Positions 14,404 through 14,476 of a stretch of 24,980 bases of DNA are shown here, piece after piece (the stretch's first letter is position 1; every line of letters starts with the position of its first letter). The notes under the pieces were generated by a model. It worked only from the letters and a program-made list of their open reading frames with translations. It was not told the DNA's origin and made no database searches. The position numbers and the translations under genes were made by a program. The DNA comes from Desulfobacterales bacterium (GTDB taxonomy: Bacteria; Desulfobacterota; Desulfobacteria; Desulfobacterales; UBA5852): positions 1 through 24,980 of the forward strand of contig JASJCD010000018.1 of assembly GCA_030066135.1 (NCBI GenBank), written 5' to 3'.

Positions 14404-14476
14404 GCTTGGTTAGCTCATCGGGTAGAGCACTGTGCGATTAACACAGGCGCAACAGGTTCGAATCCTGTACCAAACC
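14404..14476 (+). ncRNA. tRNA-like element with non-canonical anticodon loop; candidate YrlA/Y-RNA-like tRNA mimic, or degenerate tRNA
   Basis: Manual cloverleaf: acceptor GCTTGGT/ACCAAAC (6 of 7 pairs), U8 A9, D-arm GCTC-ATCGGGTA-GAGC, anticodon-like arm CTGTG-CGATTAA-CACAG (G at position 33, anticodon AUU, not a normal tRNA), variable loop GCGCA, T-arm ACAGG-TTCGAAT-CCTGT, discriminator C, no encoded CCA. Followed by a GC hairpin GGGGGT-GCC-ACCCCC. Confidence 0.5.

Follow-up and report, generated by a model that had tools for sequence, protein, structure and literature searches.

Within a 24,980-nucleotide (nt) stretch of Desulfobacterales DNA, analyzed over its whole length and called the window below (contig JASJCD010000018.1 of assembly GCA_030066135.1), a tRNA-like element at positions 14404 to 14476 lies between a putative sigma-54 promoter and the RNA ligase gene rtcB. 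Comparison with related loci leads us to regard this element, with high confidence, as a non-decoding tRNA mimic of the b7a type. It is a member of the predicted b7a-tRNA class, and a large structured RNA surrounding it is very probably real as well; the constant genomic partner of this RNA is a gene for a Band-7/SPFH protein. What appears to be new is that the whole “leader” between the promoter and the first gene is one structured RNA. The features on which the argument turns are the following.

14404 to 14476, + strand: tRNA-like domain of the b7a-tRNA type (ARAGORN, Rfam tRNA, stem pairing in 26 relatives, covariation).
About 14206 to 14859, + strand: full structured noncoding RNA, about 654 nt here and 450 to 650 nt in relatives (block conservation in 18 full-length relatives; ends estimated).
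14179 to 14193, + strand: sigma-54 promoter, −24 TGGCAC, N5, −12 TTGT (sequence reading; conserved in relatives).
16196 to 17302, + strand: gene of a slipin/stomatin-like Band-7/SPFH protein that constantly accompanies the RNA (Pfam Band_7, 6.1e-28; PDB sequence matches; model; co-occurrence).

The initial annotation of this DNA had described a near-complete cloverleaf with a consensus T-loop and D-arm, and this description was confirmed by both detection programs. In a regional scan, the Rfam tRNA model (RF00005) matches 14404-14476 end to end with 43.9 bits (gathering score 29, E = 6.5e-8), slightly below the 47 to 61 bits that genuine tRNAs in related loci reach on the same model, and ARAGORN places a tRNA with anticodon att at 14403-14480. 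A scan of the whole window (1-24980) at the gathering threshold returned no match, which is a miss of the speed filter and not a true negative; fast Rfam filters can evidently lose elements of this tRNA-like kind. Direct reading of the sequence gives an acceptor stem GCUUGGU/ACCAAAC with a mismatch C2-A71, a D arm GCUC/GAGC, an anticodon stem CUGUG/CACAG around the loop C-G-A-U-U-A-A, and a T arm ACAGG-UUCGAAU-CCUGU. Position 33 is therefore G and the anticodon A34-U35-U36, while position 73 is C and is followed by ACCA, so that a CCA is present one base out of place and none stands in the tRNA register; conservation of this displaced CCA was not seen in relatives. G33, the AUU anticodon, the C-A mismatch and the missing in-register CCA had all been reported initially, and each is found in the letters themselves. 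ARAGORN found no transfer-messenger RNA, and no Rfam match of that kind ranked above tRNA. Over 14100-14950, the sole other Rfam match at E ≤ 10 is a weak one to P11 (19 bits, E = 0.087), which covers only the sigma-54 promoter and a hairpin and was discarded as evidence of homology. Because of the low E-value and the conservation at the same position in every relative examined, the element stands above chance, in line with the earlier impression that it is too well preserved to be random.

The relatives show which features of a tRNA have been kept and which have been given up. All 14 pairs of the D, anticodon and T stems are formed in all 26 relatives compared, with no fewer than 14 different complementary sequences for the anticodon stem, covariation in the T stem and an invariant D stem. 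In the covariation scoring of 18 sequences, the anticodon stem is 100% paired and all five of its pairs show compensatory changes. Retained are the invariant D stem and its GG D-loop, a T-loop of the UUCGAAU type, anticodon and T stems of 5 bp each, and the inner three acceptor pairs, which also covary. The features of decoding and charging that have been given up are a fixed anticodon loop, U33, a closed outer acceptor stem and a conserved CCA. Across relatives, the anticodon loop reads CGAUUAA, CCGUUAA, CAGUUAA, CUUUUAC, UAAUG (5 nt) or CGUGGA (6 nt), and the first four differ even between close relatives; any of the four bases can stand at position 33, each lineage has a different “anticodon”, and the identities that ARAGORN assigns are Asn, Lys, Ile, Leu, Cys, Gln, Arg and Phe, or none at all. 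Toward its outer end the acceptor stem is largely open: pairing is often missing from 1:72 to 4:69, and 15 of 18 sequences lack the 2:71 pair, which makes the C-A “mismatch” of the window a trait of the family. Neither a CCA nor a discriminator base is conserved among relatives, and the 5′ end of the domain runs on into a conserved helix, H_C. The comparison of leaders that had been proposed thus found the element conserved and its stems covarying; it strengthened the view that this is an unlikely functional tRNA and, because the stems covary under selection, led us to reject an integration-site relic or pseudogene. In one relative, L088 (about 3990-4280, − strand), a 290-nt insertion takes the place of the anticodon loop, its ends forming about 24 bp of stem; we asked whether it might be a group I intron or another known RNA and dismissed this, as there is no Rfam match and the insertion has the long terminal stem instead.

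Conservation extends well beyond the tRNA-like part. The whole region from promoter to first open reading frame (ORF), 500 to 870 nt long, is conserved in blocks in an alignment of the intergenic regions. Because single-sequence folding does not recover the long-range helices, we relied on covariation, using our own 18-sequence alignment for the helix scan and a check by eye, and an independent MAFFT alignment (A2) for the scoring of pairs. In the latter, 11 helices comprising 70 pairs are 88.8% paired, against 35 to 43% when the partners are slid by 1 to 3 columns, and 51 of the 70 pairs show changes on both sides. None of 500 shuffles reaches the observed values, a statistic that overstates independence because the 18 related sequences include two near-duplicate pairs. 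Folding the window RNA under the covariation constraints gives −302.0 kcal/mol against −308.8 kcal/mol for the unconstrained minimum, a cost of 6.8 kcal/mol. There is no conserved ORF in the RNA region, the longest stop-free stretch being 53 to 63 amino acids in low-GC relatives. No Rfam 15 family matched the flanking regions at E ≤ 10 over 14100-14950, and nothing relevant was found in L088. The parts of the RNA around the tRNA-like domain are as follows.

14286 to 14402, + strand: 5′ domain, closed by H_C and holding P2 and the near-invariant GUGUGUACCGGACAUGGGAUCUGACG (14363-14388) (covariation, eye check).
14481 to 14514, + strand: two small hairpins, GGGGG/CCCCC at 14481-14495 and GACC/GGUC at 14500-14514 (covariation).
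14531 to 14540, + strand: 5′ strand of H_A (GGAAGACCGG), partner 14834-14843 (covariation).
14656 to 14681, + strand: 5′ strands of H_B (14656-14661) and H_E (14667-14671), then the near-invariant GGAUACCG block (14674-14681) (covariation).
14801 to 14843, + strand: 3′ strands of H_E (14801-14805), H_B (14808-14813) and H_A (14834-14843) (covariation).

In the 5′ domain, H_C (14286-14292 with 14396-14402; 84.7% paired, 5/7 pairs compensatory) stops one base before the tRNA-like domain, and P2 (14308-14319 with 14357-14368) is 89.9% paired with 8 of 12 pairs compensatory. The 5′ GGUAUC strand pairs with UAUCAG just before the tRNA-like domain, forming H_C; its pairing with the 3′ GAUACC (14676-14681) was tried and rejected, as relatives carry GAUACC on both sides. 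The GC hairpin noted early on directly 3′ of the element is the GGGGG/CCCCC hairpin, which is 78% paired with 5/5 pairs compensatory; the second hairpin is 82% paired (3/4 compensatory) and becomes GAUCG/CGAUC or ACCGC/GCGGU in relatives. The 3′ domain is reached from the 3′ side of the tRNA-like domain and is held by nested long-range helices. H_A spans 300 nt with 10 bp, 92.7% of them paired and 9/10 compensatory; H_B is 84.3% and H_E 95.6% paired, the latter changing from AGCGC/GCGCU to GGCAA/UUGCC in L005 and to GGCAU/AUGCC in L006. The first 60 nt of the transcript (14208-14266) hold two hairpins shared only with the closest relatives L089, L083 and L096, and are, judging from this distribution, a clade-specific 5′ extension of the RNA.

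The genomic company of this RNA is equally specific. A scan of GTDB genomes with RtcR yielded 80 loci (L numbers designate loci throughout), and those sharing the feature are the ones with a full-length homologue of the window Band-7 protein by tblastn: a tRNA-like element stands upstream in 9/9 loci with full-length Band-7 versus 2/69 without it (Fisher p = 3e-10). In all complete cases except one, the RNA was located directly upstream of a Band-7 gene, sometimes without RtcR, as in L082 and L085, where RNA and Band-7 are present and RtcR is absent. The idea of an RtcR ligand precursor, raised initially, is weakened by this finding. A lost Ro60 partner had also been suspected; there is no sign of one, the constant partner being the Band-7/SPFH gene at 16196-17302, and neither the scan of 20 window ORFs nor the called genes of L098, L099 and L101 gave a TROVE (Ro60) domain.

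PDB sequence matches of the window Band-7 protein are stomatin, QmcA and HflK, all of which form rings or cages, and its family comprises more than 5,600 clusters, mostly of 368 amino acids. An AlphaFold2 model (mean predicted local distance difference test score 79, predicted template modeling score (pTM) 0.51) contains three beta repeats of five strands each (residues 4-47, 71-114 and 138-181) together with an SPFH core and a long helix (287-348). At its N-terminus, the protein has two additional copies of the 45-residue beta unit with which the SPFH domain starts, and there is no evident membrane segment. In Foldseek searches the top match is stomatin (E = 8e-17, about 230 aligned columns), and the major vault protein aligns over 415 to 423 columns, that is, over the whole protein (E about 1e-10). 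The predicted structure would agree with the vault-like or Ro-like scaffold that has been proposed in the literature.

The closest relative, L001 (a Desulfobacteraceae metagenome-assembled genome), is 81% identical and carries a “tRNA-Lys(ttt)” in the corresponding position; in other RtcR loci, “tRNAs” of various kinds, or of no assignable kind, lie just upstream of rtcR on the operon strand. Among the 80 loci, a profile search found all five flanking blocks complete only in L001-L006, all Desulfobacterota, with L003 cut by a contig end; L005 is the isolate Trichlorobacter thiogenes ATCC BAA-34, in which the RNA region lies at 6337-6824 of the locus (about 419.1 to 419.7 kb of NZ_FUWR01000001.1). 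The five blocks were seen too in further relatives that were fetched. Additional look-ups of RtcR homologues showed the RNA in L097, L098, L099 and L101, with the gene order RNA, Band-7, RtcA, RtcB in the last three; L103 yielded no RNA, and L102, which has RtcR-RtcA-RtcB and an intergenic region of 198 nt, has neither Band-7 nor the RNA. RtcB is present in L002, L004, L005, L086, L088, L098, L099 and L101. A 21-nt pattern from the 5′ domain matched nine metagenome contigs, 9/9 of which carry a tRNA-like domain about 45 nt downstream; six viral-contig matches to a 17-nt pattern were set aside as chance, none having such a domain. A DNA search of plasmids gave no match. Just upstream of Band-7 in L001 (about 6128-6160, − strand), ATGAAATGGGTAAAAAAGGAGAAGTAA equals the first eight codons of the window rtcB (MKWVKKEK) and is followed by a stop; from this sequence, L001 looks to have lost rtcB by deletion from an RNA-rtcB-Band-7 arrangement.

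More distant Band-7 loci, in Phycisphaerae (L045, L050, L034), Myxococcota (L028) and Burkholderia multivorans (L105), have the same layout, in which a sigma-54 promoter is followed by a tRNA-like gene, several hundred noncoding bases and Band-7. T-arm-like hairpins of the form GGGUUCGAnUCCC often flank the tRNA-like gene in these loci, before or after it. The three Phycisphaerae loci share two sequence blocks, G(C/G)RGAUACCGA and CUCAAGCCGAYCCCCGC, and have counterparts of H_A and H_E that differ by compensatory changes. The Burkholderia element, for which the call is tRNA-Phe(aaa), reaches 44 bits with the Rfam tRNA model.

The genes around the RNA in the window belong to an RNA-repair context.

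12429 to 14039, − strand: rtcR, with a CARF-type RtcR domain and a sigma-54 AAA+ activator domain, divergent from the RNA (Pfam RtcR, 3.4e-80; Sigma54_activat, 5.7e-48).
14904 to 16076, + strand: rtcB RNA ligase, the first gene 3′ of the RNA here (Pfam RtcB, 4.6e-116).
18104 to 19015, + strand: 2H phosphoesterase/2′-5′ RNA ligase family protein (Pfam 2_5_RNA_ligase2, 4.1e-37), probably part of the same repair cluster.

The promoter lies about 210 nt upstream of the tRNA-like element and the rtcB ATG (14904) 428 nt downstream of it, close to the 200 and 430 nt estimated initially. A TGGCAY-N5-TTG element occurs at the same place in L001, L002, L004-L006 and L083-L089. This promoter position supports the earlier proposal that the tRNA mimic is transcribed from an RtcR/sigma-54 promoter ahead of rtcB, and would place the transcription start near 14205.

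The data show that the element folds like a tRNA but does not decode, that it is part of a large conserved structure, and that this structure is linked to Band-7 in the genome; transcription as a single unit, binding by Band-7 and any role in repair are inferred. In the reading that we tentatively prefer, at about an even chance or somewhat below, the RNA would be the RNA subunit of a Band-7 ribonucleoprotein particle acting with RtcB. One RNA of about 650 nt would be transcribed from the RtcR-dependent sigma-54 promoter, ahead of the RNA-repair genes, and would assemble with the oligomeric, ring- or cage-forming Band-7/SPFH protein encoded nearby. The tRNA-shaped module, which would keep the elbow and stems that proteins recognize on tRNA, might then act as a handle recruiting RtcB, end-healing enzymes or damaged-tRNA-binding partners, in parallel to Ro60-YrlA particles and eukaryotic vaults. 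It is tempting to go further and to speculate that many bacteria (Desulfobacterota, Planctomycetota, Myxococcota, Burkholderia and probably Pseudomonas) make a vault-like ribonucleoprotein, in which a tRNA-cored ornate RNA of 0.45 to 0.7 kb and a cage protein with the layout of the major vault protein, induced by RtcR as sensor of damaged tRNA, would work with RtcB to repair or shield the RNAs of translation during toxin or phage attack; we consider this bolder version less likely than not.

Several observations weigh against an RNA subunit of a Band-7 particle. In the window it is rtcB, and not Band-7, that directly follows the RNA, and no + strand terminator was found between the promoter and rtcB, so that the RNA may be a mere cis 5′ leader. 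In L081 Band-7 is absent from the vicinity and the RNA consists of just the 5′ and tRNA-like domains; this may be a decayed or mobile copy. The resemblance to the vault protein concerns one predicted monomer with a pTM of 0.51, and the transcription start, 3′ end, processing and protein binding of the RNA are all deductions. On the structural side, besides the near-duplicates in the alignment, the single-sequence minimum-free-energy fold lacks the long-range helices and has a z-score of only −2.6. Moreover, H_B competes with a local hairpin (14806-14809/14819-14822, CCGU/ACGG), and P2 with the low-complexity, GU/GC-rich H_D (14362-14368 versus 14668-14674), both members of each pair showing some covariation; these mutually exclusive pairings could be a conformational switch or a low-complexity artefact.

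Such a switch would suit the strongest rival, which we nevertheless judge unlikely, namely that the RNA is a cis-acting leader controlling rtcB and Band-7 in the same transcript, be it by sensing a ligand or a factor that binds tRNA, by alternative helices, or as an RNase P- or RNase Z-type processing site that releases and stabilizes the mRNA. The missing terminator and the position of the RNA, always immediately 5′ of the first ORF and ending 40 to 150 nt before the ribosome-binding site, speak for it along with the two sets of exclusive pairings. However, a length of 450 to 650 nt with at least 11 conserved helices is far beyond known leaders, and the RNA is unchanged while the first gene differs (rtcB in the window and in L097, Band-7 elsewhere). 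The conserved 3′ block also stops well before the ribosome-binding site and the spacer is variable, leaving no conserved sequestering helix apparent, and the acceptor stem that RNase P would recognize is degenerate, with 3 to 4 bp in most members. Less probable again is a decoy for anticodon nucleases or tRNA-modifying toxins, or a source of 2′,3′-cyclic-phosphate fragments that activate RtcR in a feed-forward manner. Damaged tRNA fragments activate RtcR in Salmonella, where YrlA has been proposed as a possible competitive nuclease inhibitor (PMC7790460); the element here lies within an RtcR-controlled transcript, and conflict could produce the fast change of the anticodon loop between close relatives. 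Yet anticodon nucleases read specific loops, and here the loop ranges from 5 nt to a 290-nt insertion; RNA and Band-7 persist without RtcR in L082 and L085, and the 5′ and 3′ domains and the Band-7 link would be left unexplained.

A genuine spare tRNA (Asn or Lys), induced with the repair enzymes to replace damaged tRNAs, seems very improbable to us, even though ARAGORN and Rfam both call a tRNA, L085 and L001 have canonical-looking CUUUUAA or CUUUUAC loops, and apparently normal tRNAs occur inside some RtcR operons (four each between Band-7 and rtcB in L045 and L050, seven in L034, 10 to 12 in L051 and L053). Against it stand G33 in place of the near-universal U33, an “anticodon” that varies among close orthologues, the 5- and 6-nt loops, an outer acceptor unpaired in most members without CCA or conserved discriminator base, and a 5′ end fused to a conserved helix. 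An A34, moreover, is not modifiable outside the tRNA-Arg(ACG) context, which likewise counts against decoding. Hardly more credible is a YrlA-type Y RNA whose Ro60 partner is encoded outside the window. Its general position, as in the Salmonella rsr-yrlBA-rtcBA operon, and the tRNA-like module favor it, but no YrlA or Y_RNA match was obtained at E ≤ 10 over 14100-14950, whereas the YrlA model scores 69.6 to 75.5 bits at five places in other RtcR loci, which serve as a positive control; TROVE did not turn up among the window ORFs scanned, and the long-flank relatives show Band-7, RtcA and RtcB, not Ro60. From the earlier suggestion of a YrlA-like RNA, therefore, the functional analogy to the tRNA-like module of YrlA survives, and the assignment to YrlA (RF02553) or Y RNA does not. 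The genuine YrlA genes lie at the following places, in loci without a full-length homologue of the window Band-7; in L069, a “tRNA-Arg(tct)” adjoins YrlA.

L052, 2926 to 3052 and 3324 to 3454, − strand: YrlA.
L069, 3476 to 3603, − strand: YrlA.
L036, 3381 to 3507, − strand: YrlA.
L042, 3945 to 4078, − strand: YrlA.

Several known systems bear comparison with this RNA. The b7a-tRNA prediction is reportedly due to Burroughs and Aravind (NAR 2016), and its definition is taken here at second hand from Wang et al. 2018. In that preprint (bioRxiv 10.1101/312249), b7a-tRNA is a predicted noncoding RNA that strongly resembles tRNA and is encoded next to Band-7 and RtcB; the authors describe it as unvalidated, with a proposed role as cofactor to a scaffold for RNA repair that might overlap with that of YrlA. 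The window shows the tRNA-like noncoding RNA, the Band-7 adjacency and the RtcB operon of this definition, with the caveat that rtcB separates the RNA from Band-7. As cited, b7a-tRNA is tRNA-sized, whereas here it is one domain of an RNA of 450 to 650 nt with covarying long-range helices; no description of this larger RNA was found in Rfam or in the searchable literature, the content of Burroughs and Aravind 2016 aside. Another example of the class appears to be PA4581.1 (“tRNA-Arg4”) of P. aeruginosa, located between rtcR (PA4581) and a divergent PA4582 (Band-7)-PA4585 cluster. A 2026 paper reports that it lacks CCA, has atypical identity bases and reaches about half the level of canonical tRNAs in quantitative reverse transcription PCR; that work treats it as an odd tRNA, and flanking structure is not discussed (PMC13637947).

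With YrlA, the RNA shares its occurrence in RtcB operons, a tRNA-mimic module (D and T arms, elbow) and a ring-shaped scaffold partner, but it does not match the covariance model, its partner is Band-7/SPFH and not Ro60, and it is 4 to 5 times longer. A Ro60-binding terminal stem did not turn up here, no search having been aimed at one, and H_C encloses the 5′ domain only. With vaults (major vault protein, vault RNA, TEP1), the likeness lies in the beta repeats, the SPFH “shoulder” and the long helix of the predicted Band-7 structure, alignable at full length, and in a noncoding RNA linked to an SPFH-type cage protein, the link being genomic here. The vault protein, however, has nine repeats against three in the window Band-7, where the likeness is that of a single predicted monomer and a closed shell would be conjecture, and vault RNAs are about 100 nt long and not tRNA-like in this way. 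Finally, the size class of 500 to 700 nt, the many covarying helices and the unknown biochemical function recall the large ornate RNAs (OLE, GOLLD, ROOL, HEARO, raiA), and GOLLD and ROOL are also frequently associated with tRNA genes; these differ in that the present RNA has no Rfam match to them and stands in the context of RtcR, RtcB and Band-7.

Among the accessory noncoding RNAs of bacterial RtcB operons, the Band-7-associated tRNA-like RNA has been a prediction since 2016. If the tRNA-like RNA is indeed the core of a large RNA, the species to seek would measure about 0.5 to 0.7 kb and not 75 nt, with concrete helices to mutate and culturable hosts at hand in Trichlorobacter thiogenes, Burkholderia multivorans and P. 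aeruginosa, and the few large RNAs known from bacteria whose function is unexplained would gain a new class. The predicted full-length resemblance of the Band-7 partner to the major vault protein might also bear on the old puzzle of the role of the vault and its RNA. For annotation, recurrent “odd tRNAs” such as tRNA-Asn(AUU), tRNA-Phe(AAA) and the PA4581.1 tRNA-Arg4 would be explained and should not be counted as decoding tRNAs.

Some minor observations concern neighboring tRNA-like genes. Arrays of 4 to 12 apparently normal tRNA genes on the operon strand occur in RtcR-controlled clusters, and the arrayed tRNAs may be spares co-induced with repair.

L045, 4395 to 4745, − strand: array of apparently normal tRNAs.
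L050, 4390 to 4744, − strand: the same.
L034, 1639 to 2254, − strand: the same.
L051, 1124 to 2054, − strand: the same.
L053, 78 to 1008, − strand: the same.
L068, 47 to 217, − strand: the same.

Downstream of rtcB in L002 (811-908, − strand) lies a second tRNA-like gene, not called by ARAGORN, with a good acceptor stem (GGGGAAG/CUUCCCC) and an anticodon loop enlarged by about 45 bases. In L081 (5352-5665), the partial RNA adjoins a tRNA-Cys-like 3′ half and parAB; in the loci without RtcR (L081, and L082 at about 841-1000), the RNA lies just downstream of such a tRNA-Cys-like 3′ half. In some E. coli strains, as seen in STEC639 (L104; CP061233.1, 611814-613738), a slipin (Band-7) gene and then a nucleotidyltransferase gene lie between a DUF3811 gene and lysC; this locus was considered as the same system and set aside, as it has no tRNA-like element upstream and apparently represents a different Band-7 system. 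In the window itself, the stretch between rtcR and the sigma-54 promoter (14040-14170) is strongly AT-rich with repeated ATATA/TTTAT motifs, as are similar stretches in relatives, and is possibly an RtcR upstream activating sequence or an IHF site.

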